64,000 bases of DNA from an uncultured Acidimicrobiaceae bacterium (lineage in GTDB: Bacteria; Actinomycetota; Acidimicrobiia; Acidimicrobiales; RAAP-2): the NCBI GenBank assembly GCA_963783965.1, contig CAWAPQ010000013.1, positions 367,529 through 431,528 on the forward strand. Reading direction: 5' to 3'. Both the position numbers and the translations under genes were made by a program. Within the stretch, counting starts at the first letter, position 1. Each line of letters starts with the position of its first letter. The notes under the pieces were generated by a model. That model made no database searches. It saw only the letters and a list, made by a program, of their open reading frames with translations, and had not been told where the DNA came from. Shown piece after piece: positions 19,682 to 48,970 of this stretch.

Positions 19682-20887
19682 TCAGGCGGCGAAGGGCAGC
19701 TTCATGACCTCCGCGAGATTGCCGCCCATGACCTTCGCCATCTCCTCGTGCGACAAGCCCTCGAGCTCGTCGACGTAGGACAGCGGCTCCGACATGCCTT
19801 CGATGTGCGGGTAGTCCGATCCGAACACGACGCGGTCGGCGCCCACCAGATCAATGAGGCCGCGCGGGTCCTCCTCGTGGAACGGGTGGATCCAGATGTT
19901 CCGCTTGAGCACCATGAGGGGATCCTCGTCGTAGATCGCCGGCTCGTGCGCGTACGAGCGGCCCATGGCGTCAATGAGCGGGCGCACCCACGCCGAGCCG
20001 TTCTCCACGGGGAGGATGCGCAACGTCGGGAACCGGCTCAGCAGGCCGTGCCCGATCAACGACGCCACGGTGTCGAAGATGCCCCGGCCCTGCGTGTGCG
20101 CGATGTCCATGAAGGCCGACTTGCCTCCCGCGAACGGAAGGTGCTCCCCGCCGTGGGTGCCTTCCCACTGGTTGTAGTAGCGGGTGAGGCCGTCGTCGGA
20201 GGCATGCATGCCAACCGTGACGTCCAGCTCGGTCACCCGCTGCCAGAACGGGTCGAACTCGGGGAGCGCGAACGAGCGGTAGCCCCGGTAGCCCGGCACC
20301 GGGGCGGGCCTGATGAGGATCAGCTTCGCCCCCCGCTCGACGACCCATTCGAGCTCCTTGATCGCCTCGTCGACGATGGGCAGCGTGATCACCGGCGACG
20401 CGAAGATCCGGCCCTCGTAGTTGAACGTCCAATGCTCGTGCATCCACTGGTTCAGCGCGTGGACCACGACGTGCGTGGCAATCGGGTCGTCGGCCAGGCG
20501 CTCCTCGAGCAAGCTGGCCAGTGTCGGCCACATGAGGGCACGGTCGAGGCCGAGCTCGTCCATGAGGGCGAGCCGCGGCTCGGGCGAGAAGAACGCCTCG
20601 GGCGAACGGATCGGGTCCCCCATCAGCTCGCGGCGGCTCTTTCCCTCGGGATTGCCGTACTTGAAGAGCTCCTCGGACGCACCCGGTCGGCCGACCACGT
20701 TGAAGGTCGGGTTCGGGATGTACTCGGAGATCACGTTGCGCACGGCGATTTTGGTGCGCCCGTTGACCTCCACGTACTTGATCAGCCCGGCGTACTCGGG
20801 AGGCAGGAACTTCGTGAAGGCGTCCGTCGTCTCGTACATGTGGTTGTCGGCGTCGAAGACGGGAAAGTCGACAATGGGCTTGGGCAT
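19682..20887 (-). CDS. Amidohydrolase_2 (ACMSD/metal-dependent hydrolase) family protein
   Basis: MPKPIVDFPVFDADNHMYE..VVFGSDYPHIEG. ATG 20887 is preceded by GGAGGTGG. Confidence 0.85.
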   Translation of the reverse strand: MPKPIVDFPVFDADNHMYETTDAFTKFLPPEYAGLIKYVEVNGRTKIAVRNVISEYIPNPTFNVVGRPGASEELFKYGNPEGKSRRELMGDPIRSPEAFFSPEPRLALMDELGLDRALMWPTLASLLEERLADDPIATHVVVHALNQWMHEHWTFNYEGRIFASPVITLPIVDEAIKELEWVVERGAKLILIRPAPVPGYRGYRSFALPEFDPFWQRVTELDVTVGMHASDDGLTRYYNQWEGTHGGEHLPFAGGKSAFMDIAHTQGRGIFDTVASLIGHGLLSRFPTLRILPVENGSAWVRPLIDAMGRSYAHEPAIYDEDPLMVLKRNIWIHPFHEEDPRGLIDLVGADRVVFGSDYPHIEGMSEPLSYVDELEGLSHEEMAKVMGGNLAEVMKLPFAA

Positions 20888-21052: not shown

Positions 21053-21068
21053 ATGCAAAGCTTTGCAT
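21053..21068. promoter_or_regulatory. 16-bp perfect palindrome ATGCAAAGCTTTGCAT (LacI-type operator candidate) overlapping the uxaC start
   Basis: Read directly. The same 14-bp core TGCAAAGCTTTGCA recurs at 46357..46370. Confidence 0.5.
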
Positions 21069-22477
21069 CGATGCTCCACCCGGACCGCCTCCTGCCCGCC
21101 GACCCGGGAGTCCGCCGGATCGCCCGGGCCCTGTACGACGGGACGAAGCCCCTTCCCATCGTGAGTCCCCACGGCCACTGCGACCCTGTGGCACTGGCCG
21201 ACGACATCCCGTTCGACAGCCTCGCGACCGAGCTCGTGACGAAGGACCACTACATCCTGCGCATGCTGTACAGCCAAGGTGTGTCCCTCGAGGCACTCGG
21301 CGTACCCCGGCGCGACGGCACACCGGTCGTCACGGACGGAAGGCAGATTTGGCGCGAACTGGCAGCGCGTGCTCCGCTGTTCCGCGGCACGCCGTCGAAG
21401 CTGTGGCTCGACCACACGCTGCAGGAGGTGTTCGGCGTCCAGGAGCCGATCGACGCCAAGAACGCCGACGCCGTGTACGAGACGATCTCGGCCCGCCTGG
21501 CCGAAGAGAGCTTCCGACCACGTGCGCTCTTCGAACGCTTCGGCATCGCCTTCCTCGCCACGACCGACGGCGCCCTCGACCTTCTCGAACCGCATGTGCA
21601 GCTGCGTCAATCCGGTTGGGCGGGACGCGTCGTGCCGACCTTCCGCCCGGACGATGTCATCGACCCTGATCGGCCCGCCTTCCAGGCGCGCGTGGCAACG
21701 CTCGGCGAGCTGACAGGTGAGGACACCGCGACCTGGTCCGGCTACCTCGACGCGCTCCGGAGCCGGCGGGCCTCGTTCGTCGCGGCGGGCGCGACCGCTT
21801 CGGACCACGGGCACGCGTCCCCCGTCACGGCCGATCTTTCACCGACAGAAGCAGAAGCTCTGTTTACGCGCGTGATGGCGGGCAGGGGACAACCGGGCGA
21901 CGCCGATTTGTTCCGCGGTCAGATGCTGGTCGAAATGGCGGCGATGAGCCTGGACGATGGTCTCGTGCTGCAAATCCACGCCGGTGCGTGGCGCGACCAC
22001 AATCCGACGGTGGCGGCCCGCTTCGGCCCCGACCAGGGCGCCGACATTCCGAGGGGGGTCGACTACGTGGACGGCCTCAAACCGCTGCTCGACCGGTTCG
22101 GCAACGAGCAGGGGCTGACCGTCGTCGTCTACACCCTCGACGAGACGACCTACAGCCGCGAGCTGGCGCCGCTGGCCGGGCACTATCCGGCACTGCGCCT
22201 TGGGCCTCCGTGGTGGTTCTTCGACAGCCCCGAAGGCATCCGCCGCTTCTACCGCTCGATCGTCGAGACGGCCGGATTCGCCAACACCGTCGGCTTCAAC
22301 GACGACGCCCGGTCCCTGCTGAGCATCCCGGCCCGCCACGACGTGGCCCGGCGGCTCAATGCCGGCTACCTGGCCGAGCTGGTGGCGGAGCACCGAATGT
22401 CGGAGGAGGACGCCGCGGACACCGCGGAGGACTTGGCCCTCAACCTCGCCTGTCGGGCTTTCCGGGTCGATCGATGA
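21053..22477 (+). CDS. uxaC: Glucuronate isomerase (uronate isomerase)
   Basis: 474 aa. ..LPIVSPHGHCDP..KDHYILRML..LQIHAGA..LGPPWWFFD.. is collinear with UxaC. GGAGAGGGA lies upstream of ATG 21053; ATG 21071 is an alternative. Confidence 0.9.
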   Translation: MQSFASMLHPDRLLPADPGVRRIARALYDGTKPLPIVSPHGHCDPVALADDIPFDSLATELVTKDHYILRMLYSQGVSLEALGVPRRDGTPVVTDGRQIWRELAARAPLFRGTPSKLWLDHTLQEVFGVQEPIDAKNADAVYETISARLAEESFRPRALFERFGIAFLATTDGALDLLEPHVQLRQSGWAGRVVPTFRPDDVIDPDRPAFQARVATLGELTGEDTATWSGYLDALRSRRASFVAAGATASDHGHASPVTADLSPTEAEALFTRVMAGRGQPGDADLFRGQMLVEMAAMSLDDGLVLQIHAGAWRDHNPTVAARFGPDQGADIPRGVDYVDGLKPLLDRFGNEQGLTVVVYTLDETTYSRELAPLAGHYPALRLGPPWWFFDSPEGIRRFYRSIVETAGFANTVGFNDDARSLLSIPARHDVARRLNAGYLAELVAEHRMSEEDAADTAEDLALNLACRAFRVDR

Positions 22478-22992
22478 CGCGCGTGGTGCTCGTCGGACTG
22501 ATGGGGTCCGGCAAGTCCACCGTCGGCGCGCTGGTCGCCGAGCGGACCGGCAGGGCGTTCGTCGACGTCGACGTGGTCATCGCCCAGGAGACGGGCAAGA
22601 CCGTCCGCGCCCTCTGGGAGGAGGGCGGCGAAGCTGCCTACCGCCACCTCGAATCGGAGGCCGTGCTGCGAGTCCTGCGCGACGACACGCCCTCGGTACT
22701 GGCAGCCCCCGGGGGTGCCGTGCTCGATCCGCGCCTGCGCGCCGCCCTCACCGGGAACCTCGTCGTCTGGCTGCGGACCAGTCCGACGACACTGGCGGCT
22801 CGGGTCCGGCCCGGGGATCACCGACCCCTCCTCGGGGACCAGCCCGCTGAGACCCTGGCCGCCATGGCGGCGGCGCGGTCGAACCTCTACGAAGAGGTGG
22901 CGACCGCCACCATCGACACTGACGGCCGCACCGCGGCGGAGATCGCGGAGGACGTCATCGGACTGCTCGCAGGCAGCCCGGCGGACACCTGA
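22474..22992 (+). CDS. Shikimate-kinase-family (SKI) P-loop kinase, translationally coupled to uxaC
   Basis: MTRVVLVGLMGSGKSTVGALVAERTGRAFVDVDVVIAQETGKTVRALWEEGGEAAYRHLE.. closely resembles AroK. The usual GGG substrate loop reads APGG. ATG 22474 overlaps the uxaC stop (ATGA). Confidence 0.8.
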   Translation: MTRVVLVGLMGSGKSTVGALVAERTGRAFVDVDVVIAQETGKTVRALWEEGGEAAYRHLESEAVLRVLRDDTPSVLAAPGGAVLDPRLRAALTGNLVVWLRTSPTTLAARVRPGDHRPLLGDQPAETLAAMAAARSNLYEEVATATIDTDGRTAAEIAEDVIGLLAGSPADT

Positions 22993-23011: not shown

Positions 23012-24829
23012 ATGCTTCGACCACAGGACGGCAGCACCCGCGAGACCAAGCGGCTCGACGGGATCTGGTCCTTCAGCCCGGACAGTGCCGGGGTCGGTCG
23101 CTCCGAGGGTTGGTTCCGCGCCGCCCTCCCCGAAGGTCGTCGGATGCCGGTGCCGAGCAGCTTCAACGACGTGCTGGCCGATCCGCAGGTGCACGACCAT
23201 GTCGGTGACGTCTGGTACCAGCGCAACGCCTTCATCCCGCGCGGCTGGGCCGGACAGCGCATCGTCCTCCGATTCGATGCCGCCACGCACCGCGCCACCG
23301 CGTGGGTCGGGGACTCCTGCGTCGGCGACCACGAGGGCGGCTACACGCCGTTCGAGATTGACGTCACCGCTTTCGTAGTGCCGGGCGAGGAGTGCCGGTT
23401 CACCGTGGTCGTCAACAACGAGCTCACGTGGGAGTCCATTCCTCCGGGAGTCGTGGAGGTGCTGCCGGACGGGACCCGACGGCAACGGCAGTACCACGAC
23501 TTCTTCAACTACGCCGGCCTGCACCGCAGCGTCTGGCTCTACGCGACCCCCCGCGCGCACGTCGATGACGTGACTGTGGTCACCGACCTCGACGACGGGG
23601 TCGGTGTCGTCCGCTACGACGTCGGCGTCGCAGGAGGCGGCTCCCAGGCCGTCCGTGTGCGGCTCCGCGACGCCGGCGGCGTCGTGGTCGCCGAGGCGGA
23701 AGGGGCTGACGGTGTCCTCCGTGTGGCCGAGCCGGAGCTGTGGGGGCCGGGGCGGGGATACCTCTACGACCTGGAGGTCGAGCTCGTCGTCGTCGACGAC
23801 GACGATGACGCCGTCGTCGACCGCTACACGCTCCCGGTCGGCATCCGCACCGTGCGGGTCGAGGGCACGCAGTTCCTCATCAACGACGAGCCCTTCTACT
23901 TCCGGGGCTTCGGCAAGCACGAGGACCTCAACGTGCACGGCCGCGGCCACGACGACGCGGCGATGCTGCACGACTTCTCGCTCCTCGCGTGGATCGGCGC
24001 CAACTCCTTTCGGACCTCCCACTACCCCTACGCCGAGGAGGTGCTCGAACAGGCCGACCGCCAAGGCATCGTCGTCATCGACGAGACGGCTGCGGTCGGG
24101 CTCAACCTTGGCGTCGGAGGAGGAATGTTCCTCGGTGGCCCGAGGACGACCTTCTCGGAAGAGACGGTCAGCGCAGCCACGCAGCTGGTGCACCGTCGGG
24201 CCATTGAGGAGCTCATCGCACGGGACAAGAACCATCCGTGCGTCGTCTTGTGGAGCCTGGCCAACGAGCCCGAGTCCCACACCGCCGCCGGCCGCACCTA
24301 CTTCGAGCCTCTGTTCCGGGCGGCCCGGGAGGCTGATCCGAGCCGTCCGGTCGGATTCGTCAACATGATGTTCGCGCTCCCCGGCACCTGCACGGTGACC
24401 GAACTGGCGGATGTCGTGATGATCAACCGCTACTACGGCTGGTACGTCGAGCCCGGCGACCTCCTGGCGGCGGAGCGAGGTCTCGAGGCAGAGCTCCGGG
24501 CCTGGGCCGCCACGCACGCCAAGCCCATCATTGTGACGGAGTACGGAGCGGACACGATGTCGGGACTCCACACGACGGACGGCAGCATCTGGAGCGAGGA
24601 GTACCAGGTGGCACTGCTCGAGACCTATCACCGCGTCTTCGATCGCACGGAGGCAGTGGTGGGCGAGCACGTCTGGAACTTCGCGGACTTCGCCACGGGG
24701 CCGTCCTTCATGCGTGTCGACGGCAACAAGAAGGGCGTGTTCACCCGGGATCGGCGGCCGAAAATGGCCGCACATTACCTGCGGCGCCGGTGGACCGGCG
24801 CTCCCTGGCGCGTGTCGTCGAATGCCTGA
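23012..24829 (+). CDS. uidA: Beta-glucuronidase (GH2)
   Basis: MLRPQDGSTRETKRLDGIWSF.. is collinear with E. coli GUS (MLRPVETPTREIKKLDGLWAF..). WSLANEPE (acid/base), VTEYGAD (nucleophile), NKKGVFTRDRRPK. Confidence 0.95.
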   Translation: MLRPQDGSTRETKRLDGIWSFSPDSAGVGRSEGWFRAALPEGRRMPVPSSFNDVLADPQVHDHVGDVWYQRNAFIPRGWAGQRIVLRFDAATHRATAWVGDSCVGDHEGGYTPFEIDVTAFVVPGEECRFTVVVNNELTWESIPPGVVEVLPDGTRRQRQYHDFFNYAGLHRSVWLYATPRAHVDDVTVVTDLDDGVGVVRYDVGVAGGGSQAVRVRLRDAGGVVVAEAEGADGVLRVAEPELWGPGRGYLYDLEVELVVVDDDDDAVVDRYTLPVGIRTVRVEGTQFLINDEPFYFRGFGKHEDLNVHGRGHDDAAMLHDFSLLAWIGANSFRTSHYPYAEEVLEQADRQGIVVIDETAAVGLNLGVGGGMFLGGPRTTFSEETVSAATQLVHRRAIEELIARDKNHPCVVLWSLANEPESHTAAGRTYFEPLFRAAREADPSRPVGFVNMMFALPGTCTVTELADVVMINRYYGWYVEPGDLLAAERGLEAELRAWAATHAKPIIVTEYGADTMSGLHTTDGSIWSEEYQVALLETYHRVFDRTEAVVGEHVWNFADFATGPSFMRVDGNKKGVFTRDRRPKMAAHYLRRRWTGAPWRVSSNA

Positions 24830-25772
24830 CGACCAGCTCCCCGTAGAGCTCCCTCCTCGCGGGTGCTTCGCCGAGCATCGCCATGGCCGCGGCACCGACC
24901 TCCCCGGAGGGCAGGCGGATGGTCGTGAGCGGAGGGGCGACCATGGCTGCCATCGGCACGTCGTCGAAACCCACCACGCTGACGTCACGGGGGACGGAGA
25001 TCCCGAGAGCGGTCAACCCGGCGATGACCCCGAGCGCCATCTGATCGTTGAACGCCAGCACCGCCGAGACGCCGCTGGCAGCGATGTCGGGCACCACGCT
25101 CGCCGTGGCCTCGAACGTCGGCTCGCCCACCGAGAGCTCGACCACCGCGATCCCACTGGACCGACCGTTCCGCCGCACCGCGGTGCGGCGCTCGCCGGCC
25201 GCCCACGACCCATTGGGCCCACCGAGATACGCCAACCGTGTGTGACCGAGCCCGGCCAGATGTATGAGGGTGTCGCTGACCGCGGGTGCGGTGCGGAGGA
25301 GAACGGAGGCATGCTCGCGCACGGGGCGGTTGACGAAGACCGCCGGCGTCGACCCCAGGGAGCCGAGGGTGCGATGCAGGCGGCGCGGCGACACGATGAT
25401 GAACCCGTCGACCTCCCGGGACAGGGACTCCGCCGCTCGCACCTCCTCACCCGGGTGCTCGCCGGTGTCTACGAGGAGCACCTGCAGCTCGGCCTGCCGC
25501 GCCGCGCGCTCGACGGATCGGACCACCGCAGCGAAGTGCGGATTGGTGATGTCGGGAACGATGACGGCGAGATTGCCCGTCCGGCCGGTGATCAAGCCAC
25601 GGGCCGCCCGGTTCGGAACGAAGCCGAGCGCGCGTACAGCTTCTTCGACCTTGCGGCGGGTTTCGGGAGCGACCTTCTCGGGCACGTTGATGGTGCGAGA
25701 CACCGTGGCCGCATGCACGCCGGCGCGGGCGGCGACATCGAGGATCGTCGCTCGTTGCTCGCGCCGCACCAC
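24741..25772 (-). CDS. LacI-family transcriptional regulator
   Basis: ATILDVAARAGVHAATVSRTINVPEKVAPETRRKVEEAVRALGFVPNRAARGL HTH, then a periplasmic-binding-like core ending ..LVVRHST. GTG 25772 or 25769. The 3' end overlaps uidA convergently. Confidence 0.9.
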   Translation of the reverse strand: MVRREQRATILDVAARAGVHAATVSRTINVPEKVAPETRRKVEEAVRALGFVPNRAARGLITGRTGNLAVIVPDITNPHFAAVVRSVERAARQAELQVLLVDTGEHPGEEVRAAESLSREVDGFIIVSPRRLHRTLGSLGSTPAVFVNRPVREHASVLLRTAPAVSDTLIHLAGLGHTRLAYLGGPNGSWAAGERRTAVRRNGRSSGIAVVELSVGEPTFEATASVVPDIAASGVSAVLAFNDQMALGVIAGLTALGISVPRDVSVVGFDDVPMAAMVAPPLTTIRLPSGEVGAAAMAMLGEAPARRELYGELVVRHSTTRARERRSTGAAGNVRPFSAADPG

Positions 25773-25813: not shown

Positions 25814-27199
25814 ATGACCGGCACGCGCCAGCAACGCCTGAGCGCGCGCACGGTGCTGCACGCGCGTGCGGGCACGCTGCCGGACTACGACAGGGCCGGG
25901 CCACCCGTCATCGCCCACCTCGGTTTCGGCGCCTTCGCCAGGGCCCACCTGGCGGTCTACGCTGACGCACTCCTCCGGCGCGGTCATCCCGCGCTGATCA
26001 GCGGTGTCTCCCTCAGGAGCCGGCGGGCGCAGCAGCAACTCGAGCCGCAGGACGGTCTCTTCACCGTCGCCGTGCGGGAGCCGGGTGAGGAGACGACACT
26101 CCAGGTGATCGGTGCACTGACCTCCATGACGACCGGGCCCGCGGCGGCGCTCGAGGCGATGACGTCACCGACCACATCGCTCGTCACGGTGACCATCACT
26201 GAGAAGGGCTACGAAGACAGCGTCGACAGGCCGACGACCTCAGGAGGAGCGCCCGGCACGGCGGCGCTCATCGCCCAGGCGTTGGCCCAGCGCCGCCGGG
26301 AGGGAGCGGCGCCTCCGGTCTTCGCATCGCTCGACAACCTTCTGGACAACGGCGGCGTGCTGCGGGCGCGGGTCCTCCGGGCAGCCGAGGCCATCGATCC
26401 CGCCCTGGCGGCGTGGATCGCCGACGAGGTGTGCTTCCCCAGCTCGGTCGTCGACCGCATGGTTCCTGCGCCCACCGAAGCCAGTCGGAAGGACATCGCC
26501 GACGAGCTCGGGCTCGTCGACGAGGCTGCCGTCGCCACGGAACGCCACCGTTCCTGGATCATGCGGTCGGTCGGCGGGTTGGATCGCCTCGGCGAGGTCG
26601 GCGTGGAGCTGGTCGACGACATTGATCCCTTCGAGCGCCGCAAGCTCTGGCTCCTCAACGAACCGCACTCCGCCGCGGCGTACGGCGGCCTGCTGACCGG
26701 GTGCGCCACCATCGCAGCGGCCGTGGCAGATCCCGTCGTCGCTCGCTTCGTACGGGCGCTCGTCGAACAGACGCTCGAGGTGGCCGCGCTGCCGCCAGCG
26801 CTGCAGCCCGCGGCATTCGCCGACGACGCGTTGCGGAGATTCGCCAACCCGGCTCTGGGCCACACCTGCGTCCAGGTCGGCGCCGACGGATCGAGCAAAT
26901 TGCCCCAGCGCCTGCTCCCCGTCGTGGCGGCCCGACGGGCCAGGTCGCTCGACACCACAACGTTCGCCATCGTGGCGGCCATCTGGATCGCCGGCGTGGC
27001 GGGCGTGGAGGTGCGTGGCGTGGCGCTTCCCCGCCTGCAGGATCCGATCGCCGAGGATCTCCGTGCCGCCGCCCGGTGCGGCGCGCTCGGGGAGCTCAGT
27101 CGCCGCGCCCTCGGGCACACCGCGTTCGCCGCCGAGGTCGCGTCCATGCTGCAGCGGTTGACCACAGAGGGACCGAGGGTGTTGGGGGGTGGGGAGTGA
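25814..27199 (+). CDS. Mannitol-dehydrogenase-family oxidoreductase (fructuronate/tagaturonate-reductase-like)
   Basis: IAHLGFGAFARAHLAVY, TITEKGY, VDRMVP, LNEPHSAAAY motifs of the long-chain mannitol DH family. Start may be somewhat downstream. Confidence 0.85.
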   Translation: MTGTRQQRLSARTVLHARAGTLPDYDRAGPPVIAHLGFGAFARAHLAVYADALLRRGHPALISGVSLRSRRAQQQLEPQDGLFTVAVREPGEETTLQVIGALTSMTTGPAAALEAMTSPTTSLVTVTITEKGYEDSVDRPTTSGGAPGTAALIAQALAQRRREGAAPPVFASLDNLLDNGGVLRARVLRAAEAIDPALAAWIADEVCFPSSVVDRMVPAPTEASRKDIADELGLVDEAAVATERHRSWIMRSVGGLDRLGEVGVELVDDIDPFERRKLWLLNEPHSAAAYGGLLTGCATIAAAVADPVVARFVRALVEQTLEVAALPPALQPAAFADDALRRFANPALGHTCVQVGADGSSKLPQRLLPVVAARRARSLDTTTFAIVAAIWIAGVAGVEVRGVALPRLQDPIAEDLRAAARCGALGELSRRALGHTAFAAEVASMLQRLTTEGPRVLGGGE

Positions 27200-28449
27200 C
27201 GGTGACGCTGGGGGGGCCCGGACGGGTGCTCGAACCCGAGGCGGTTCGCTCGTTCGTGCGCGCCGAGGTCGCCGCACTGGACCTGGCCGGTCGCTCCCTG
27301 TGCGTGGTCATCCCCGACGCCACCCGGAACTGCCCGCTGCCCCTGCTCCTCCGGGCCATCGAAGAGGGAGCCGGCGGACGGACGAGTGCACTGACCGCGG
27401 TGATCGCCCTCGGCACCCACGCACCCATGTCCGACGACGCCGTGGCCGCGTTGGTCGGGCCGGCCTCCCTTCACGTCCGCAACCATGCGTGGTGGGAGGA
27501 CGACACCTTCACGCACGTCGGCTCGTTGTCGGCGGAGCTGGTCGTGGAGCTCTCGGGCGGCCGGCTTCATGACCCGATCGACGTCCGGCTCAACCGGCTC
27601 GTTGTCGAGAGCGACGTGACGCTGCTCGTCGGCCCGGTGTTGCCCCATGAGGTCATCGGCTTCTCGGGAGGGAACAAGTACCTGTTCCCCGGGCTGTCCG
27701 GCCAGGAGATGATCGACGTGACGCACTGGCTCGGGGCGCTGATCACGAGCAGCGAGATCATCGGCACGCGTGGGGTCACGCCCGTGCGGGCACTGGTCGA
27801 GGCGGCGGCCGAGCTGGTGCCCGGCGAGCGCCACGCCCTGTGCGTCGTCGTGGACCACGACAGTGGCGGCCTGGAGTCGTTGTCCTTCGGGGACCCGTTC
27901 GGCGCCTGGGCGGCCGCGGCCGAGGTGGCGGCGGAGACGCACGTCATCTATCTCGACCGCCCGGTGCGGAGGGTGCTCTCCCTCGTCCCCACGCGGTACC
28001 CGGACCTGTGGACGGGGGCCAAGGGCTTCTACAAGGTGGAGCCGGTGGTGGCCGACGCGGGCGAGGTCGTCCTGTACGCGCCGCACATCACCGAGATCGC
28101 GGCGATGCACCCGCGCCTCATGGAGATCGGCTACCACTGCCGCGACTTCTTCCTGGCCCAGTGGGACCGCTACCGCGACGTCCCGCTGGGCGAGCTGGCG
28201 CACTCGACCCATCTGTTCGGCGCCGGGACGTACGACCCCGTGGGCGGGGAGCGCCAACGGGTCCGGGTCACCCTGGCCACCGGCATCCCCGAGGACGTCG
28301 TGCGGCGGGCGAACCTCGGCTACCTCGCGCCCGACGCCGTCGAGCCCTCAGCATGGGCTTCCGATCCCCATGCGCTGGTCGTGCCCGATGCCGGCGAGGT
28401 GCTCTACCGGCTCCGGACAACCCCACCGGCGGGCTACTCGCCGGGATAG
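27196..28449 (+). CDS. LarA-like (lactate-racemase family, DUF2088) putative nickel-pincer-dependent 2-hydroxyacid racemase/epimerase
   Basis: 417 aa. VVIPDATRNCPLP, IALGTHAP, PHEVIGFSGGNKYLFPG and IDVTHW align with the LarA catalytic/cofactor motifs. GTG 27196 overlaps the upstream stop (GTGA). Confidence 0.8.
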   Translation: MTVTLGGPGRVLEPEAVRSFVRAEVAALDLAGRSLCVVIPDATRNCPLPLLLRAIEEGAGGRTSALTAVIALGTHAPMSDDAVAALVGPASLHVRNHAWWEDDTFTHVGSLSAELVVELSGGRLHDPIDVRLNRLVVESDVTLLVGPVLPHEVIGFSGGNKYLFPGLSGQEMIDVTHWLGALITSSEIIGTRGVTPVRALVEAAAELVPGERHALCVVVDHDSGGLESLSFGDPFGAWAAAAEVAAETHVIYLDRPVRRVLSLVPTRYPDLWTGAKGFYKVEPVVADAGEVVLYAPHITEIAAMHPRLMEIGYHCRDFFLAQWDRYRDVPLGELAHSTHLFGAGTYDPVGGERQRVRVTLATGIPEDVVRRANLGYLAPDAVEPSAWASDPHALVVPDAGEVLYRLRTTPPAGYSPG

Positions 28450-29405
28450 ACGACGCCGAGCTCGGCCCGGATGGCATCGAGGGTCGTGGCCAGGGCGATG
28501 GACTCGTCCAAGGGGACCACACTGCTCTCGGTCCGGCCTTCGGCGAGGCAGCGATGCACCTCGTCGATCTCGAAACGGAGCCCGTTGCCTTCGTACGAGG
28601 CGTCGATCCGCTCGACTCCGGCCGCGCTCGAGACGGTGAGGGCGTTCGGACAGTGCATCATTGCCGGGAGATCGATGACGCCATCGGTCCCCGCGATCCG
28701 GGCGGTGCAGGGCATGGCGACCCGCAAGGCGGCCTTGACCACACCCAACCGGTCCTCCGTGTGGTGCAGGAGCGCGGTGACCACCTCGTCGACACCCGTC
28801 TCGCCCACCACCCCGTCGGCGACGACGCGCTCGATCGGCCCCAGGACCAGCGTGCAGAGCTGCACGGGGTAGATCCCGAGGTCGAGCAGCGCCCCTCCGC
28901 CCAGCTCACGAGCGAAGTGCCGGTGATCGGGATCCACCGGCCGGCGGAACCCGAAGTCCGCCTCCACGAGGAGGGGCTCACCGATGCGACCCTCGCCGAG
29001 AACATCGACGAGTGCGCGGTAGGCGGGAAGGAACCTGCTCCAGATGGCCTCCATGAGGAAGAGTCCCCGGCTGCGGGCCTCCTCCGCCATGCGTGCCCCC
29101 TGGCGGGCGTTGAGTGCGAACGGCTTCTCGCACAGGACGTGCTTCCCGGCCTGCAGGAGGGTGATGGTGTCGACCTCGTGACGCGAGTGCGGGGTCGCGA
29201 CGTAGACGACATCCACGTCGGGGTCGCCGGCGAGCGCGTCGTAGTCGCCGTACCGGGTCGGGATGTCGAACCTGTCGCCGAACGCGTCGGCCCGCTCGGC
29301 CGAGCGCGAGGCCACGGCCGTGATGGTGCCCCCCTCGGCCCACTGCATCGCCTCGGCGAAGCCCGCGGCGATGATGCCCGGCCCGATCACGCCCCAGCGG
29401 ATCAC
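28434..29405 (-). CDS. Gfo/Idh/MocA-family NAD(P)-dependent oxidoreductase (dimeric dihydrodiol / sugar 1-dehydrogenase-like)
   Basis: VIRWGVIGPGIIAAGFAEAM..HVLCEKPFALN.. from GTG 29405. The rest of the 866-aa track ORF is spurious. Overlaps the LarA-like 3' end by 16 nt (convergent). Confidence 0.85.
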   Translation of the reverse strand: MIRWGVIGPGIIAAGFAEAMQWAEGGTITAVASRSAERADAFGDRFDIPTRYGDYDALAGDPDVDVVYVATPHSRHEVDTITLLQAGKHVLCEKPFALNARQGARMAEEARSRGLFLMEAIWSRFLPAYRALVDVLGEGRIGEPLLVEADFGFRRPVDPDHRHFARELGGGALLDLGIYPVQLCTLVLGPIERVVADGVVGETGVDEVVTALLHHTEDRLGVVKAALRVAMPCTARIAGTDGVIDLPAMMHCPNALTVSSAAGVERIDASYEGNGLRFEIDEVHRCLAEGRTESSVVPLDESIALATTLDAIRAELGVVYPGE

Positions 29406-29570: not shown

Positions 29571-30728
29571 ATGACCGATCTCTTTGTGCCGCGACCCGAA
29601 GACCACTTCACTTTCGGGCTCTGGACCGTGGGCAACCCCGGCCGTGACCCGTTCGGCGCCGAGGTGCGCGCGCCACTCGACCCGGTCGATTCCGTGCACC
29701 GTCTCGCCGAGCTGGGCGCCTACGGCGTCAGCTTCCACGACAACGATCTCGTCCCGTACGGCTCGTCGCCCAACGAGCGTGACGAGATACTGAAGCGCTT
29801 TCGCCGCGCGCTCGACGCCACCGGGATGCACGTTCCCATGGTGACGACGAACCTCTTCTGGCGGCCGGTGTTCAAAGAGGGCGCGTTCACGGCCAACGAC
29901 CCGCTCGTGCGCCGACTGGCCGTCAAGAAAGCCTGTGAAGCGACCGAGCTCGGTGCCGAGCTCGGTGCCGAGATCTTCGTCCTCTGGGGTGGCCGGGAGG
30001 GAATGGAGGCCGAAGCCGCCAAGGACGTCCGGCTGGCCCTGGACCGCTACAAGGAAGCGATCGATCTCGTGTGCGATCACATTGCGGCGCGGGGCCTTCG
30101 CCTGCGTCTTGCGCTGGAGCCCAAGCCGAACGAGCCCCGCGGCGACATCCTCCTCCCGACCGTGGGCCATGCGCTCGCCTTCATCGGGTCGCTCGAGCAT
30201 CCGGACATGGTCGGGCTGAACCCGGAGTTCGCGCACGAGACCATGAGCGGCCTCTCCTTCTCGCAGGCCGTGGCGCAGGCGTTGTGGCAGGGCAAGCTCT
30301 TCCACATCGATCTCAACGCGCAGCGGATCGGCAAGTTCGACCAGGACTTCCGCTTCGGTTCCGAGGGGATCCGCGATGCCTTCTACGTCGTCAAGCTGCT
30401 GGAGGACGCCCGGTGGGACGGCATGCGGCACTTCGACGCCCACCCGTACCGCACCGAGGATGCCGACGGCGTATGGGACTTCGCCCGCGGCTGCATGCGC
30501 ACGTACCTGATATTGGCGGACAAGGCCCGGCGCTTCCACGAAGACGCCGACATCCGGGAGGCCCTCCGGGTGGCAAAGGTGGCCCAGCTGGGTGAACCGA
30601 CGGCCCCGGCCGGCGGCCTCGACGAGCTGCTGGCCGCGCAGTACGACGAGGACGCGCTGGCCGCGCAGGGCTACGGCCACGAACAGCTGGACCAGCTCGT
30701 CACCGAGTTGCTGCTCGGGGCCCGGTAG
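29571..30728 (+). CDS. xylA: Xylose isomerase (class I, actinobacterial type)
   Basis: [52 protein letters not shown] lies upstream of ATG 29571. Confidence 0.95.
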
Positions 30729-32149
30729 TGCCCCTGGTGGTCGGGGTCGACTCCTCGACGTCGGCCTGCAAGGTCCAGGTACGCGACGCCGACAGCGGTG
30801 CAGTGGTGGCGTCGGGTCGGGCGACCCACCCTTCGACGTCGCCTCCCCGTAGCGAGCAGCACCCCTCGCAGTGGGAGGCCGCATTCCACGCGGCAAGCGC
30901 TCAGGCGGCCCTCCCGGCCCGGGAGACGCCGTCGGCCATTGCCATCGCCGCACAACAACACGGCCTGGTCGTCCTCGACGCAGACGGCGAGGTGCTCCGT
31001 CCCGCCAAGCTCTGGAACGACACGGAGTCCGCACCCGATACCGCCACGCTCCTCTCCGCCCTGCCGGGCGGCCCGGCCGGCTGGGCCACTGCCTGCGGCA
31101 GCGTGCCGCTCCCGAGCTTCACCATCACCAAGCTGCACTGGTTGCGCCGCTGTGAGCCGGAGGCCTTCACGCGTGTTGCCTCCGTCCTGCTGCCGCACGA
31201 CTGGCTCACGTTCCGCCTCACCGGCCGTCCCACCACCGACCGGGGCGACGCCTCGGGCACCGGGTACTGGTCGCCGCGCGGGGACCGCTACCGGGACGAC
31301 CTCCTCCGTCTCGTCAGCAGCGACATCGACTGGGACTCGGTGCTCCCCGAGGTCCTCGCTCCGGACGCCATCGCCGGGGAGTGGCGGGGCGCCGGGATCA
31401 CCGTCGCTCCCGGGACGGGCGACAACATGGCGGCCGCCCTCGGCCTGGGCCTCCGCCCCGGGGACCTCGCCCTGAGCCTCGGGACGAGCGGCACCGCCTT
31501 CACGGTCGCCGACGAGCCGACCGAGGACCCCACGGGAACGGTCGCCGGCTTCGCCGATGCGACGGGGCGCTTCCTGCCGCTCGTCTGCACCATGAACGCC
31601 ACCAAGGTGACCGGCGCCGTGGCCCGTCTGCTCGGCGTCGATCAGGCGCAGCTCGACGCGCTGGCGCTCGAGGCGCCGCCCGGTGCGGGCGGGCTGGTGC
31701 TCGTCCCGCACCTCGACGGCGAACGCACTCCGAACCGGCCCGGTGCGACCGGGACAGTGACGGGACTGCGCACCGACGTGACCCGGGCCCAACTGGCCCG
31801 GGCGGCGATTGAAGGTGTGGTGTGCAACCTGCTGGCCGGAGCCGACGCGCTCGGGCCGGCGAGCCCGCAAGGCACGGTGTTCCTGGTCGGCGGCGCGGCC
31901 CGGAGCCCGGCCTACCGGCGCATCGTCGCGGACCTCACGGGGCGACCCGTTCGGGTCCCGGCCGACGACGAGCTCGTGGCGGCCGGCGCAGCGGTCCAGG
32001 CCGCCGCGGTGCACCACGGTTGCGACTTCGCGCAGGTGGCGGCGGCGTGGGGACTCGGGCGCGGCGAGACCGTCGAGCCGGACGACTCGGTCGACCGCGT
32101 CGCCGTCCGCGCTTCCTACGCCGCCGCGGCGGAGGCGGCCGTGCCATGA
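30728..32149 (+). CDS. xylB: Xylulokinase (FGGY family)
   Basis: VVGVDSSTSACKVQV..PGTGDNMAAALG..GGAARSPAY. GTG 30728 overlaps the xylA stop. Confidence 0.9.
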   Translation: MPLVVGVDSSTSACKVQVRDADSGAVVASGRATHPSTSPPRSEQHPSQWEAAFHAASAQAALPARETPSAIAIAAQQHGLVVLDADGEVLRPAKLWNDTESAPDTATLLSALPGGPAGWATACGSVPLPSFTITKLHWLRRCEPEAFTRVASVLLPHDWLTFRLTGRPTTDRGDASGTGYWSPRGDRYRDDLLRLVSSDIDWDSVLPEVLAPDAIAGEWRGAGITVAPGTGDNMAAALGLGLRPGDLALSLGTSGTAFTVADEPTEDPTGTVAGFADATGRFLPLVCTMNATKVTGAVARLLGVDQAQLDALALEAPPGAGGLVLVPHLDGERTPNRPGATGTVTGLRTDVTRAQLARAAIEGVVCNLLAGADALGPASPQGTVFLVGGAARSPAYRRIVADLTGRPVRVPADDELVAAGAAVQAAAVHHGCDFAQVAAAWGLGRGETVEPDDSVDRVAVRASYAAAAEAAVP

Positions 32150-33624
32150 CCTACCGCAACCCCGTCATTCCGGGCTTCCATCCCGACCCGAGCGTGTGCC
32201 GGGTCGGAGACGAGTACTTCTTGGTGACCTCCTCGTTCATCCTCTCCCCCGGCGTCCCTGTCTTCCGGTCCTCGAACCTGGTGGAGTGGACGCAGATCGG
32301 CAACGTGCTCGAACGCCCATCGCACCTCGACCTCGCGTCGACCTGGAACTGGTCGTCGCTCGGCATCTACGCCCCGACCATCCGCTACCACGACGGCACG
32401 TTCTTCATGATCACCACCAACGTCGGCTCCGCGGGCGTGCGGACGTTTCTCGTCATGAGCGAAGACCCCGCCGGACCGTGGTCGGATCCCGTCCCGGTGC
32501 CGGTCCCCGGCATCGACCCCGACCTGGCCTGGGACCACGACGGGAACTGCTGGGTGCACTTTTCGGGCCTCGGCGGCATCGCCCGCTCCCGCATCAATGT
32601 CAGCACCGGCGCCCTGGTGAGCACGCCGGACCTCACGTGGTCGGGCACCGGGCTGCAGTACCCCGAGTCACCACACCTCTACGAGCGCGACGGACTCTGG
32701 TACCTCCTCATCGCCGAGGGAGGGACGTACGCCGGGCACAGCGTCTCGGTCGCCCGCGGCCCGTCCCCGCTCGGGCCCTGGGAAGGATCGCCGAGCAATC
32801 CGATCCTCTCGCACCGCAGCACCGACTCGCCGATTCAGAACACCGGCCACGGCGACCTGGTGGAGGCCATCGACCGATCGTGGTGGATGGTCTTCTTGGG
32901 TGTGCGACCCAGGGGCATCGGACCCACCTTCCACACGCTCGGCCGCGAGACCTTCCTCGTGCCGGTGCAGTGGCACGACGGTTGGCCGGTACCGGCCGAT
33001 CCCGCGTTGGAGATGACCGCCACGACTCCCGGACTGGTCGAGAGCGTGCAGGCTCAAGGGCGGGAGGACTTCGACGCGCCCACCCTGGGGCCCATCTGGG
33101 TCGGCCTCCGCCGATCCCCCGCGATGATGAGCTCGCTCACGGACCGCCCCGGCTGGCTCGTCCTGCACGGTGGCGAGGCCACGCTTGACGACCCGGAGCC
33201 GACGTTCGTCGGGCGCCGGCAACTCCATCATCACTGCCGGGTCAGCGCGCGCGTCGACGCCGCACCGGCCACGGAGGCCGGGGTAGCCGTCTGGTTGGAC
33301 GGAGGTGCGCACTACGAGGTCGCCGTCCGGGGCGACCGCGTCGTCGCCCTGGCCCGCATCGGATCGGTCCATTCCGTCGTCGGATCGGCACCGCGTCCGG
33401 TGGGCCCCGTGGTGCTGAACCTCGAAACAGGTCCTGACCCGTACGGACCCGACTCGGTCTCACTCGGATTCGACGACGGCTCGGGCACCACACGGACGTT
33501 GGCTCGCCTGGACGGCCGCTACCTCTCCACAGAGGTGACGGGAGGGTTTCTCGGCCGCGTGATCGGGATGTACGCCGTCGGCGGGAAAGCCGCCTTCGAA
33601 TGGTTCGACTACGGAGAGGCGTGA
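32146..33624 (+). CDS. GH43 beta-xylosidase/alpha-L-arabinofuranosidase
   Basis: MTYRNPVIPGFHPDPSVCRVGDEYFLVTSSF..YAPTIRYHDGTFFM..ESPHLYERDGLWYLLIAEGG. ATGA overlap with xylB. Confidence 0.9.
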   Translation: MTYRNPVIPGFHPDPSVCRVGDEYFLVTSSFILSPGVPVFRSSNLVEWTQIGNVLERPSHLDLASTWNWSSLGIYAPTIRYHDGTFFMITTNVGSAGVRTFLVMSEDPAGPWSDPVPVPVPGIDPDLAWDHDGNCWVHFSGLGGIARSRINVSTGALVSTPDLTWSGTGLQYPESPHLYERDGLWYLLIAEGGTYAGHSVSVARGPSPLGPWEGSPSNPILSHRSTDSPIQNTGHGDLVEAIDRSWWMVFLGVRPRGIGPTFHTLGRETFLVPVQWHDGWPVPADPALEMTATTPGLVESVQAQGREDFDAPTLGPIWVGLRRSPAMMSSLTDRPGWLVLHGGEATLDDPEPTFVGRRQLHHHCRVSARVDAAPATEAGVAVWLDGGAHYEVAVRGDRVVALARIGSVHSVVGSAPRPVGPVVLNLETGPDPYGPDSVSLGFDDGSGTTRTLARLDGRYLSTEVTGGFLGRVIGMYAVGGKAAFEWFDYGEA

Positions 33625-34631
33625 CGGGCGACGCGCCGAACCGCCGTCCCGTCATGGCTGACGTCGCCGCCCGGGCCGGCGTGTCCGTCATGACCGTGTC
33701 CCGCGTGCTGAACGGGTTCGCCGGTGTGACCGAGGAGACCCGACTGCGGGTCGAGGAGGCCGTTGCGTCGCTCGGGTACCACGCCAACACCGCGGCACGG
33801 GTGCTGGCCGGCGGCCGCTCACGCACCCTGGGGGTGATGGCCGTCGAGACCGAGCAGTTCGGCCCGTCCCACATGCTCTTCGCCATTGAGGCGGCGGCCC
33901 GCCGGGCCGGCCACGCCGTGACCTTCGTGACGCTGAACCGAAACGGCAGTGACATGGAGGCGACGCTCGACCAGCTGCGGGCCTCGCACGTGCAGGGGGT
34001 CATTGTGGTCGCACCCGTTCGGCGTGTCGTGGAGGCGGCGACCCGGCTTGAGGGCGACATGCCCCTCGTCGTCGTCGGGGGTGACCCCGCCATCGGCGCG
34101 CCCACCGTCACCATCGACCAGGTGGGCGGCGCCCGCATCGCCACGCGCCATCTCCTCGACCTCGGGCACGGCACGGTCCACCACGTGGCCGGCCCGCAGA
34201 CCTGGATCGATGCCACCGCCCGCCTGCGGGGCTGGTCGGATGCGCTGCGCGAGTACCCCGCTCCCGGAGGCCGCTCGGTGGCCGGGGACTGGAGTGCACG
34301 CCGCGGCTACGAGGCCGGCCTGCGCCTGGCCGGGGAGGCGGACGTCACGGCCGTCTTCGCCGCCAACGACCAGACGGCGCTCGGGGTGATCAGAGGCTTG
34401 CGCGATGCCGGTCGCCGGGTGCCCGAGCACGTGAGCGTGATCGGATTCGACGACACGCCGGAGTCGGGGTACTACCTGCCGCCCCTGACGACGGTCCGCC
34501 AGGATTTCGGGGAGGTCGGGCGCCGCAGCGTCGAGCTCCTGTTGTCGCTCTTCGACGGCGAGCTGGTGGAGCGTCATGTCGTCGTCCCGGCGGCACTGGT
34601 TGAACGGGCCAGCACGGCGCCGCCGCGCTGA
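33621..34631 (+). CDS. LacI-family transcriptional regulator (last gene of the xyl operon)
   Basis: VMADVAARAGVSVMTVSRVLNGFAGVTEETRLRVEEAVASLGYHANTAARVL. GTG 33621 overlaps the GH43 stop (GTGA). Confidence 0.9.
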   Translation: MTGDAPNRRPVMADVAARAGVSVMTVSRVLNGFAGVTEETRLRVEEAVASLGYHANTAARVLAGGRSRTLGVMAVETEQFGPSHMLFAIEAAARRAGHAVTFVTLNRNGSDMEATLDQLRASHVQGVIVVAPVRRVVEAATRLEGDMPLVVVGGDPAIGAPTVTIDQVGGARIATRHLLDLGHGTVHHVAGPQTWIDATARLRGWSDALREYPAPGGRSVAGDWSARRGYEAGLRLAGEADVTAVFAANDQTALGVIRGLRDAGRRVPEHVSVIGFDDTPESGYYLPPLTTVRQDFGEVGRRSVELLLSLFDGELVERHVVVPAALVERASTAPPR

Positions 34632-35738
34632 TCAACGGATCAGCGCATCCACGTCGTCCAACGCCCCGGGCTCACAGGCGACCACGACGGTGCCCCCGCA
34701 GCCGCCCCCACTGGAGCGGGCGCCGTAGACGCCGGGCCGGGACAACGCCTCCTCGACGATCGCCGTGGCCGCCGGATGGCCGAGCCCCATGGCGTCATAC
34801 CCGTCCTGGCTCGCGGCCATCAGGGGCCCGAGCCGCGCCGGCGACGGCACCTCGCCGGCCAACGCGGCCAGCGCGTCCACCGCACGCACGTGCTCCTCGA
34901 CGCCGAACGACGCCGCCGCACGGACTGGGTACGTCTCGTCCGGTCGTACGACCGTCACGTCGTCGTCGGTCGTGCCCCAGCGATTGAGGAAGGAGGCTCC
35001 ATCCATCGTCGCCGGGAGGCCCTCCACAGCGGCGCGCGGCAGCTCGCTCACCCATGACCAGGTGCGGCCGGCCGCTTCCTCGAGCACGCGCTTGCCCATG
35101 AAGGCCGCCGCCCGTGCCCGCGCGTACGGCGCGCCGTCCACGTTGTGCGAGATTCCCGTCGGCCACCCGACGACCTCGAGCCCGGGCGGCAGGGGGACCG
35201 GGTCCGCCACCGAAGCCGGCCGGCACAGTATCGGCAGCACTGCTCCGGGTGTCCCGAGCGCCACCGCCACCTGATCCATGATGCCGCAAGGCGCGCCGAC
35301 GACATGGTTCTCGGCCTCCTGACACAGCGCGGCGACACGGAGAGGGTCCGCGCCCGCCGCGCCGAGCGCGCGCGCCGTGGCCACCTCGAGCGCCGCGCTT
35401 GATGCCACGCCCACCGATGCCGGGAGATCCGACGTGACGTCGAGCCGCACGCGGGGCGGCGCAATCACACCGTGGCGCAGGAGCACAAGGGCGACCCCGA
35501 CGACGTAGTGCGTCCACCGGGGACACGCGGCCAGCTGCCGGCGGACATCCTCGTAGGCGAGCCCGGCCAGGTCGACGAGCTCGGCCAACGAGAAGCTGAC
35601 CGGGCCCACGACGAAGGCGTCGTCGGGAGTCGCGACCACCTCGGTCCCCTGCCGGGTCGGCATCTCGAGCACGAGCGCCCCCGAGTAGTCCGCCACGCCA
35701 CCGAGAAGGTCGAGACGCCCTGACGCGCTACCCCGCAC
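34632..35738 (-). CDS. GHMP-family anomeric sugar kinase (arabinokinase-like rather than classical GalK)
   Basis: VRGSASGRLDLLGGVADYSGALVLEMPT.. in place of the GalK GEHxDY signature. GHMP motif SDLPASVGVASSAALEVA, C-terminal SSGGGCGG. GTG 35738 overlaps the upstream gene by 11 nt. Confidence 0.8.
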   Translation of the reverse strand: MRGSASGRLDLLGGVADYSGALVLEMPTRQGTEVVATPDDAFVVGPVSFSLAELVDLAGLAYEDVRRQLAACPRWTHYVVGVALVLLRHGVIAPPRVRLDVTSDLPASVGVASSAALEVATARALGAAGADPLRVAALCQEAENHVVGAPCGIMDQVAVALGTPGAVLPILCRPASVADPVPLPPGLEVVGWPTGISHNVDGAPYARARAAAFMGKRVLEEAAGRTWSWVSELPRAAVEGLPATMDGASFLNRWGTTDDDVTVVRPDETYPVRAAASFGVEEHVRAVDALAALAGEVPSPARLGPLMAASQDGYDAMGLGHPAATAIVEEALSRPGVYGARSSGGGCGGTVVVACEPGALDDVDALIR

Positions 35739-36651
35739 CCAGCCCGTCCACCAACTCCGCCAACACCGGACCGATGCGCTCAGCCAACGCCCGGTTCGCG
35801 TAGCCGACCCAGGCCACCGGCGAGACGTTGTCCAGCGGGACCGCAAGCGGACCACCCCAGGGGTCGGTGACCACGCCCCCGACCTCTTCGAGGAGCAAGG
35901 CGGTGCACACGTCGTAGGGATGGCAGGCCAGACCGTCGTTCGTGACCAACGGGCGCAGATCGGCGACGAAACGGTCGCGCCCTGTGATCAGCTCGTGCAG
36001 TTGGCCCCCGGTCGAGAGGTACTCGTCGTCGAAGACGTGCTGCTCGCCGAGCCGCTCGAACAGCTGCGCCTCCAGTCCGGCGAGGGTCGTCTTGCCGGGC
36101 AGGAAGAATTTCGCCAGCCCAGCGAAGCTGTGGGCGAGATCCGTCGCCGTGGACGGCCGCACACCCAGCGCCACGCGGCCGCCGCGAGCGAGGTCGACCC
36201 GTTCGCCGTGCAGGCCCCCGCCGCGGGTGGCGCTCAGCTGATCGGCCGCCCCCTGCTTGACAGTGGGAAGTTCGGTCATGGCCGCCGCGACGACGTCCGC
36301 CAGCGTGCCGCCCGGCGGTGCCACTGCGGCCAGACACCAGGCCGGCCGCTTGTCGTACATCAGACCGCGCGTGCCGTCGATGGTGTCGACGATGACCGTC
36401 CAGGCCGCCTCGCCGCCGACGAGCACGGGGTGGTCGAGTCCCTCCGAGACCACCATGACATCGCGCCAGTACTGCTCGAACCAGCGCAGCAGTGCGTCGT
36501 CGGCGACCCGGTCGATGGCGTAGATCGTGTCGGCCACGCTCTCCCCCGACACCGCTGCCATGTCCATGCCCCGGGACGCCACGACCAGGTCGCGCACGTG
36601 CTCGCCCAGCGCGCAGAGCAGGCGACGGGCTTCTTCAGGCGATGGCGGCAC
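35728..36651 (-). CDS. Inositol-monophosphatase/FBPase-fold family phosphatase-like protein
   Basis: WTVIVDTIDGTRGLMY (DPIDGT-type motif) and HPYDVCTALLLEEVGGVVTD (WD-x-AAG-type motif). GTG 36651 overlaps the GalT-like 3' end by 17 nt. Confidence 0.75.
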   Translation of the reverse strand: MPPSPEEARRLLCALGEHVRDLVVASRGMDMAAVSGESVADTIYAIDRVADDALLRWFEQYWRDVMVVSEGLDHPVLVGGEAAWTVIVDTIDGTRGLMYDKRPAWCLAAVAPPGGTLADVVAAAMTELPTVKQGAADQLSATRGGGLHGERVDLARGGRVALGVRPSTATDLAHSFAGLAKFFLPGKTTLAGLEAQLFERLGEQHVFDDEYLSTGGQLHELITGRDRFVADLRPLVTNDGLACHPYDVCTALLLEEVGGVVTDPWGGPLAVPLDNVSPVAWVGYANRALAERIGPVLAELVDGLGAG

Positions 36652-37618: not shown

Positions 37619-37636
37619 GGCCGACTCCGGACCCGT

Positions 37637-46306: not shown

Positions 46307-46356
46307 GGGCGCACGCTAGACGTTCATCCGCTCGCCGGACGGGGGCTCCGGTTTGA

Positions 46357-46370
46357 TGCAAAGCTTTGCA
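46357..46370. promoter_or_regulatory. 14-bp perfect palindrome TGCAAAGCTTTGCA in the MarR/GH1 divergent region (LacI-type operator candidate)
   Basis: Identical core to 21054..21067. Lies 64 nt upstream of the GH1 ATG. Confidence 0.5.
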
Positions 46371-46433
46371 GAGGCCAGGGCGGGCGTGTCACACTGCGGC
46401 CTTCCGGTCAGGCTTGCGACAGGAAGGACCGCG

Positions 46434-47669: not shown

Positions 47670-47696
47670 TCGCCGTCGCCGCCGTCGGCCGCTCCG

Positions 47697-48884: not shown

Positions 48885-48970
48885 CGTCCCCCCTTTTCCG
48901 CACCGCCCTCAGGCGTGCACAAGGGTCATGCTAACGATTGCACGAGGCGAGAACCAGGGGATGGTGCCCG

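Follow-up and report, generated by a model that had tools for sequence, protein, structure and literature searches.

The DNA examined here is a stretch of 64,000 nucleotides from an uncultured Acidimicrobiaceae bacterium (GenBank assembly GCA_963783965.1, contig CAWAPQ010000013.1, positions 367,529 to 431,528), referred to as a whole as the window. On its plus strand lies a gene for a homologue of the lactate racemase LarA, hereafter LarAH, which stands in an operon-like group of genes for the breakdown of glucuronides. The gene and the motifs by which its product can be compared with characterized enzymes are listed below, with window coordinates.

27196..28449, plus strand: the LarAH gene, assigned to the GntE type and to group 19; 417 residues (translation, Pfam, PDB, AlphaFold2/Foldseek and a neighbor-joining (NJ) tree)
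27304..27342, plus strand: motif VVIPDATRNCPLP, residues 37-49; D41 corresponds to the catalytic D72 of LarA, and R44 to R75, which binds the nickel-pincer nucleotide (NPN)
27403..27426, plus strand: motif IALGTHAP, residues 70-77; H75 corresponds to the catalytic H108
27643..27693, plus strand: motif PHEVIGFSGGNKYLFPG, residues 150-166; H151 corresponds to the catalytic H174, E152 and V153 form part of the substrate loop, and K161 corresponds to K184
27712..27729, plus strand: motif IDVTHW, residues 173-178; H177 corresponds to the Ni ligand H200
28006..28026, plus strand: motif LWTGAKG in helix alpha11; W272, T273 and A275 belong to the group-19 signature, and K276 corresponds to the catalytic K298
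28189..28218, plus strand: motif GELAHSTHLF in the specificity region of helix alpha14; A335 and H336 are of the GntE type, and F341 stands in the place of an Arg

The reading frame at 27196-28449 (plus strand) runs through 417 codons with no internal stop. Its GTG start at 27196 shares the tetranucleotide GTGA with the TGA stop of the mannitol-dehydrogenase-family gene upstream, and the uninterrupted frame and the overlap together bear out a first-pass annotation of this DNA, which had described a 417-residue protein start/stop-coupled to a mannitol-dehydrogenase-family reductase. An alternative in-frame GTG at 27202, two codons on, would give a LarAH of 415 residues; a 100%-identical database protein (P0001) has this length and begins at this codon. 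The coupling to the reductase holds with either GTG. Because the window has a G+C content of 69% and yields long spurious open reading frames (ORFs) on both strands, the LarAH gene was identified by homology and not by ORF length. At its 3' end, it overlaps by 16 nucleotides with a convergent GFO/IDH/MocA gene (28434-29405, minus strand).

The sole Pfam match of LarAH is Lar_N (PF09861/DUF2088), which covers residues 30-181 with 77 bits against a gathering threshold of 23.3 (E = 1.5e-21), so that a hidden Markov model search upholds the original description of the product as a LarA-type enzyme. A sequence search of the PDB gave 4NAR as the best match (E = 1e-53), followed by LarA-family racemases. 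An AlphaFold2 model was built from a 20-sequence alignment, with a mean predicted local distance difference test score of 93.2 and a predicted template modeling (TM) score of 0.90. When this model was compared with known structures by Foldseek, 4NAR was matched at a TM score of 0.90 and a root-mean-square deviation of 2.3 A (E = 9e-40), and the holo-LarA/LarAH2 structures (5HUQ, 9EIA) at TM scores of 0.70-0.77. The 19 best Foldseek matches (all at E <= 0.001; E < 1e-13) are LarA-family structures, and the predicted structure has the two-domain LarA fold. The product of 27196-28449 is thus confirmed as a LarA-superfamily protein, with a match far beyond chance. Among the NCBIfam models, it passes none: the highest score, 143 bits for a cutoff of 500, is obtained with NF052594, which describes the group-18 hexonate epimerases, and the LarA equivalog NF033504 reaches 58 bits where 460 are required.

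For a comparison of individual residues, LarAH was aligned by MAFFT with LarA of Lactiplantibacillus plantarum and with reference LarAHs; the reference sequences and a signature of 20 positions were taken from Dataset S2 of PMC7583248. All seven catalytic and NPN-binding residues are kept (D41, R44, H75, H151, K161, H177 and K276), among them K161, the equivalent of the covalent NPN tether K184, and all seven are invariant across the 80 relatives described below. The four LarA motif correspondences put forward in the first-pass annotation are correct, because D41/R44, H75, H151, K161 and H177 align with their LarA counterparts; K276, which was absent from that list, aligns with LarA K298 too. 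Moreover, the residues that distinguish GntE enzymes are present. The published rule calls for E, V, A and H where LarA has F175, F176, W358 and T359 (PMC11770544), and LarAH has E152, V153, A335 and H336 there. Of the 20 signature positions, 19 carry the group-19 consensus, namely positions 1-19 (D R H H E V K H V W T A K G L/I A S T H), every one of which is identical in LarAH.

The phylogenetic placement among LarA homologues that the first-pass annotation had envisaged leads to the same group: in an NJ tree, LarAH and its clade nest inside group 19, within the bounds GntE1 - Trad_0660. Identity to the group-19 references is 44-59% (Modestobacter marinus 59%, Corynebacterium glutamicum GntE1 49%, Truepera radiovictrix 45%), compared with 32% to GntE2 (group 20), 24-28% to group 18 and 16% to LarA. 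The published gene context of group 19 recurs here as well, in that the neighbors of LarAH are UxaC, UidA, LacI and a reductase of the UxuB-like kind, the lar genes not being adjacent; the frequencies given for this context are LarE 33%, LarB 33%, LacI 24%, UxaC 24%, COG0246 19%, LarC 19% and GH2 14% (Table S1, PMC7583248). These sequence comparisons support the assignment of LarAH to the GntE, or D-gluconate 2-epimerase, group 19, that is, to a known family in a known gene context. Two other LarA-like sequences came to light. A protein of 2030 residues (P0156) carries a LarAH-like domain at 1106-1540, 43% identical to the window LarAH, and is apparently a very large fusion. In an uncultured Actinomycetota metagenome-assembled genome (MAG), a second, distant LarA-like paralogue (L070 7291-8628, minus strand; 28% identical over 272 residues) lies beside the group-19 gene.

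Two members of this family have been characterized. GntE1 (LarAH19) of C. glutamicum (WP_004567503.1) belongs to the same group as the window LarAH. Their 20 signature positions agree in 19 cases, among them every catalytic, NPN and E/V/A/H residue, and the published context of the group (UxaC, COG0246 dehydrogenase, LacI and GH2) matches that of the window. However, the last signature position is Phe341 in the window and Arg in GntE1, and the window LarAH is shorter than GntE1 and the group-19 references by some 17 residues at the N terminus and by a loop of 9 residues. Differences also exist in the neighborhood: the window reductase is of another subfamily, is co-directional with and directly upstream of LarAH, and overlaps its start, and the lar genes are not adjacent. 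GntE2 (LarAH20) of Thermotoga maritima (TM0442; 4NAR) is the best structural and PDB sequence match and agrees with the window protein in its catalytic and NPN residues. PMC6978723 relays from Rodionova et al. (2012) that TM0442 has a fructuronate reductase gene on one side and the gluconate kinase gene gntK on the other. GntE2 comes from a thermophile, and about half of the specificity positions differ. For example, the loop reads E-S in GntE2 and E-V in the window, the residue before the catalytic Lys is G in GntE2 and A in the window, and N-A-A-V-I-N-R in GntE2 is replaced by G-L-A-S-T-H-F. The kinase that accompanies GntE2 is given there as the gluconate kinase gntK; that of the window operon is shikimate-kinase-like.

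More distant relatives share less of this pattern. LarA of L. plantarum (5HUQ) has the same fold (TM score of about 0.70) and the same D/R/H/H/K/H/K set, but its bulky hydrophobic residues F175, F176 and W358 become E, V and A in the window protein, which also has about 30 fewer N-terminal residues. The putative hexonate epimerases of LarAH group 18 (NF052594) resemble the window LarAH in the E-V loop and in the Trp of alpha11; the signature residues of alpha11 and alpha14 differ, the identity is low and the score is well short of the model cutoff, as noted above.

The gene order around LarAH was taken from the gene calls of a near-identical contig (ENA ERZ25039465 contig_21488, 99.9% over 21 kb), combined with NCBIfam and Pfam scans:

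19682-20887, minus strand: Amidohydro_2 (PF04909) gene (Pfam), divergent from uxaC
21053-22477, plus strand: uxaC, glucuronate isomerase (NCBIfam NF002794, 507 bits, cutoff 387; Pfam UxaC)
22474-22992, plus strand: small shikimate-kinase-like kinase of 172 residues, between uxaC and uidA, with a start (ATG) that overlaps with the stop codon of uxaC
23012-24829, plus strand: uidA, beta-glucuronidase (NCBIfam NF007538, 877 bits, cutoff 544; GH2 domains)
24741-25772, minus strand: lacI-family regulator (Pfam LacI and Peripla_BP on the identical contig; NCBIfam), divergent from reductase-LarAH
25853-27199, plus strand: mannitol-dehydrogenase-family reductase, probably a UxuB-like fructuronate reductase (Pfam Mannitol_dh and Mannitol_dh_C)
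28434-29405, minus strand: GFO/IDH/MocA oxidoreductase, convergent with LarAH
29571 onward: xylA, xylB, GH43, lacI, galK and galT (NCBIfam, Pfam)

The best NCBIfam match of the reductase is fructuronate reductase (213 bits, cutoff 603), and its best PDB match is Escherichia coli YdfI (4IM7, 202 bits); both agree with the earlier view of the coupled gene as a fructuronate/mannonate-type reductase of the mannitol dehydrogenase family. Its start is ambiguous (25814 or 25853), because a 1-bp deletion brings an ATG at 25814 into frame with the reductase in the window only. This deletion, at window position 25829 relative to the 99.9%-identical ENA contig (L001 position 8627), falls in the intergenic region between lacI and the reductase. 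The small kinase at 22474-22992 is closest to shikimate kinase in NCBIfam (119 bits, cutoff 186) and to the Mycobacterium tuberculosis shikimate kinase in the PDB (96 bits). Its identification as the gluconokinase GntK was considered and rejected, as all of its NCBIfam and PDB matches are shikimate kinases and none is a gluconokinase. Pfam and NCBIfam scans of candidate ORFs, selected by their G+C content at third codon positions (GC3), revealed no UxuA, KdgK or Eda in the 64-kb window. A common LacI operator was sought by eye upstream of uxaC and of reductase-LarAH, and no convincing shared palindrome was seen. The convergent uidA (plus strand) and lacI-family (minus strand) ORFs overlap by 89 nucleotides (24741-24829), which is unusually long.

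Several other genes in the window touch on sugar metabolism. The GFO/IDH/MocA gene has D-xylose 1-dehydrogenase and inositol 2-dehydrogenase as its weak best matches, and occupies the same site in 11 of the 12 Acidimicrobiia-type loci introduced below. An Amidohydro_2 copy is similarly placed upstream of uxaC in six of these 12 loci, and the one at 19682-20887 could be a sugar-acid lactonase; more Amidohydro_2 genes occur at 47697-48908 and 63476-64000. To the right of LarAH, a carbohydrate-utilization island (29571-40093) contains xylA, xylB, GH43 and lacI, and then galK, an inositol-phosphatase-family gene, galT and a large GH2 gene on the minus strand. Beyond the island, a GH1 gene and an alpha-L-rhamnosidase gene are found at 46320-51913.

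To see how far this arrangement is conserved, one genome per species was scanned, which gave 80 loci with 54-91% identity to LarAH; the closest relatives (77-91%) are uncultured Acidimicrobiaceae MAGs. Genes within 10 kb of LarAH were counted by tblastn, because clustering of GC3-filtered ORFs had overlooked many of them, such as the reductase genes in Actinomycetes loci. UxaC was found in 50 of the 80 loci, a COG0246 dehydrogenase in 53, LacI in 37 and UidA in 20, so that the proximity of LarAH to genes for the first three reactions of glucuronide breakdown is conserved. Two layouts could be distinguished. The Acidimicrobiia type (12 loci and the window) consists of uxaC-(kinase)-uidA and a divergent lacI, followed by an abutting, co-directional reductase-LarAH pair; the reductase is immediately upstream of LarAH in 12/12 loci, LacI is present in 11/12 and the shikimate-kinase-like gene in 8/12. 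The Actinomycetes type (41 loci) usually has a uxaC-reductase unit divergent from LarAH, and its reductase is of another subfamily, about 33% identical. In 10 of the Actinomycetes loci, this unit includes an FGGY kinase with gluconokinase as its best match, and at some loci (L057, for example), lacI and larE-larB-larC come after LarAH.

The Acidimicrobiia clade differs from the remaining relatives in three respects: F or Y in the place of Arg, a shikimate-kinase-like gene in the operon, and larBCE that are never adjacent. The first of these concerns the 20th signature position, which has F or Y in the window and in all 11 Acidimicrobiia-type relatives covered there. Almost all other relatives have Arg, with five exceptions (C, C, H, F and one that is uncovered). 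Phe at this position is also found in a Nakamurella orthologue (L062), whose gene is located beside larE-larB-larC. This change from Arg to Phe/Tyr may mark a shift in substrate specificity.

Taken together with the gene neighborhood, the above comparisons make it reasonably probable, in our judgment, that LarAH is an NPN-dependent, GntE-type hexonate 2-epimerase in a glucuronide pathway. An aldonic-acid C2 epimerase, converting for example D-mannonate to D-gluconate, had been suggested in the first-pass annotation, and this proposal is supported by analogy, because the same activity was measured for the closest characterized homologues: with NPN, each of GntE1 and GntE2 converts D-mannonate to D-gluconate and back (PMC7583248). 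In the proposed pathway, the beta-glucuronidase UidA would free D-glucuronate, which UxaC would isomerize to D-fructuronate and the coupled UxuB-like reductase would reduce to D-mannonate. LarAH would then invert C2 of D-mannonate to give D-gluconate, and phosphorylation of the latter would yield 6-phosphogluconate for the pentose-phosphate or Entner-Doudoroff route. This gluconate branch would stand in for the UxuA/KdgK/Eda branch. By analogy with LarA, NPN would be carried on K161, with its Ni bound by H177; a hydride would pass from C2 to the cofactor, leaving a 2-keto intermediate, and would return onto the opposite face, with H75 and H151 as the acid/base pair. The substrate, the direction of flux and the supply of cofactor from lar genes elsewhere in the genome are inferred. 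A route from mannonate through gluconate to 6-phosphogluconate was proposed for T. maritima by Rodionova et al. (2012), as cited in PMC6978723 and PMC7583248.

A number of observations weigh against this proposal. The KM (Michaelis constant) of GntE1 for D-mannonate is 120 mM, and the authors doubt that mannonate is the native substrate (PMC7583248). The 20th signature position (equivalent to LarA I362) is F341 in LarAH (codon at 28216-28218) rather than Arg or Lys; GntE1 and GntE2 both carry Arg there. The reductase falls below every NCBIfam cutoff, and the only kinase of the operon resembles shikimate kinase, not gluconokinase. Finally, genes for the synthesis of the cofactor are missing from the vicinity. 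No larB, larC or larE was found in the 64-kb window by Pfam and NCBIfam scans of the GC3-selected ORFs or by tblastn with verified LarB, LarC and LarE, none in the 10 kb past its right end (as seen on contigs from other samples with an identical neighboring protein), and none by tblastn at distances of up to 10 kb from the 12 Acidimicrobiia-type orthologues.

The main rival explanation is a different native substrate: LarAH may catalyze the same NPN-dependent inversion at C2, acting on 6-phospho-D-mannonate (with the kinase acting first), on another hexonate such as D-altronate or L-gulonate, or on an aldarate rather than on free D-mannonate. We regard this as a minority possibility, albeit one of some weight. 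The high KM of GntE1 led its authors to suggest an isomer of mannonate, a uronic acid or an aldaric acid (PMC7583248), and extracts of Lactobacillus suebicus phosphorylate mannonate and then epimerize 6-phosphomannonate (PMC6978723). A kinase gene that is co-transcribed with uxaC, AroK-like here and of the FGGY type in the 10 Actinomycetes loci, would suit such an order of steps, and the clade-specific change of Arg to Phe/Tyr falls on a signature position. On the contrary, unphosphorylated mannonate is accepted by both GntE1 and GntE2, and the GntE specificity residues E, V, A and H are all retained. Moreover, to judge from UidA, UxaC and the UxuB-like reductase, mannonate is the compound that LarAH would receive, and the window kinase looks like a genuine shikimate kinase.

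The absence of nearby lar genes raises another alternative, namely that the genome has no larBCE and that LarAH does without NPN, either as an NPN-independent enzyme or as a non-functional relic. The families sought were AIRC/LarB, Ni_insertion/LarC and a LarE-type PP-loop protein, and the three lar representatives used as queries were verified as scoring above the NCBIfam equivalog cutoffs. Profile scans and tblastn were both negative, in accordance with the earlier remark that the window has no larB, larC or larE, and the 10-kb surroundings of the 12 Acidimicrobiia-type orthologues likewise gave none of these genes. Nonetheless, the stretch inspected is less than 6% of the 1.43-Mb ENA contig, and a separation of LarAH from the lar genes is normal, because only about one-third of the published group-19 genes adjoin lar genes (Table S1, PMC7583248). 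Among our 80 loci, larB, larC and larE occur within 10 kb of LarAH in 26, 26 and 25, respectively, one of them being that of the Nakamurella orthologue, which has the same Phe variant. In addition, the residues needed for binding NPN and for catalysis have been preserved in a clade that has otherwise diverged: at pairwise identities of 68-86%, 48% of the alignment columns are invariant in the Acidimicrobiia clade, as compared with 13/13 of the catalytic, NPN and loop signature positions (chance estimate of about 8e-5). Because of this conservation, we consider an NPN-independent or decayed protein very improbable. The invariance of the residues in the clade, the Nakamurella gene beside larE-larB-larC and the commonness of such separation in the group favor, as indirect evidence, a working NPN enzyme.

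Least probable of all are the functions implied by database labels, a lactate racemase (the Joint Genome Institute automatically names close homologues 'nickel-dependent lactate racemase') or a uronate isomerase (the PDB sequence file calls the 4NAR molecule a 'putative uronate isomerase'), since the former is at odds with the LarA equivalog score, a loop of E-V instead of F-F, an alpha14 pair of A-H instead of W-T and an identity to LarA of 16%, and the latter with the subsequent characterization of 4NAR as the gluconate 2-epimerase GntE2 (PMC7583248) and with a true UxaC already in the operon.

A GntE-type epimerase of hexonates consequently remains our preferred function for LarAH. A bolder view, which we think doubtful, is that the Acidimicrobiia clade constitutes a distinct GntE subtype. 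Such a subtype would be marked by the Phe/Tyr residue and by the overlap of LarAH with a reductase of a different subfamily; a shikimate-kinase-like enzyme would have been recruited as a hexonate kinase into the slot held elsewhere by the FGGY gluconokinase-like enzyme, and the operon would encode a self-contained route from glucuronides to 6-phosphogluconate without UxuA, KdgK and Eda. The route of L. suebicus likewise joins UxaC/UxuB to 6-phosphogluconate without these three enzymes; it differs in that the kinase acts before the epimerase, and in that its genes are unidentified and no LarA homologue is implicated (PMC6978723).

The finding is largely ordinary. Descriptions of the GntE family, its activity and its gene neighborhood date from 2020, with an extension in 2024, and the window gene adds a member from an uncultured Acidimicrobiaceae bacterium with modest clade-specific features; because the enzyme family, activity and gene context were already published, the gain is incremental. 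Points of interest are the native substrate of group 19, in view of the KM of GntE1, and the meaning of both the change from Arg to Phe/Tyr and the shikimate-kinase-like gene. If the proposed function is true, uncultured soil Acidimicrobiaceae would route glucuronides to the pentose-phosphate or Entner-Doudoroff pathway via a nickel-pincer epimerase, and not via the textbook UxuA/KdgK/Eda branch. A pathway that is known in Thermotoga and inferred for Corynebacterium would thereby extend to another actinobacterial class, and the use of glucuronides there would depend on nickel and on NPN synthesis.

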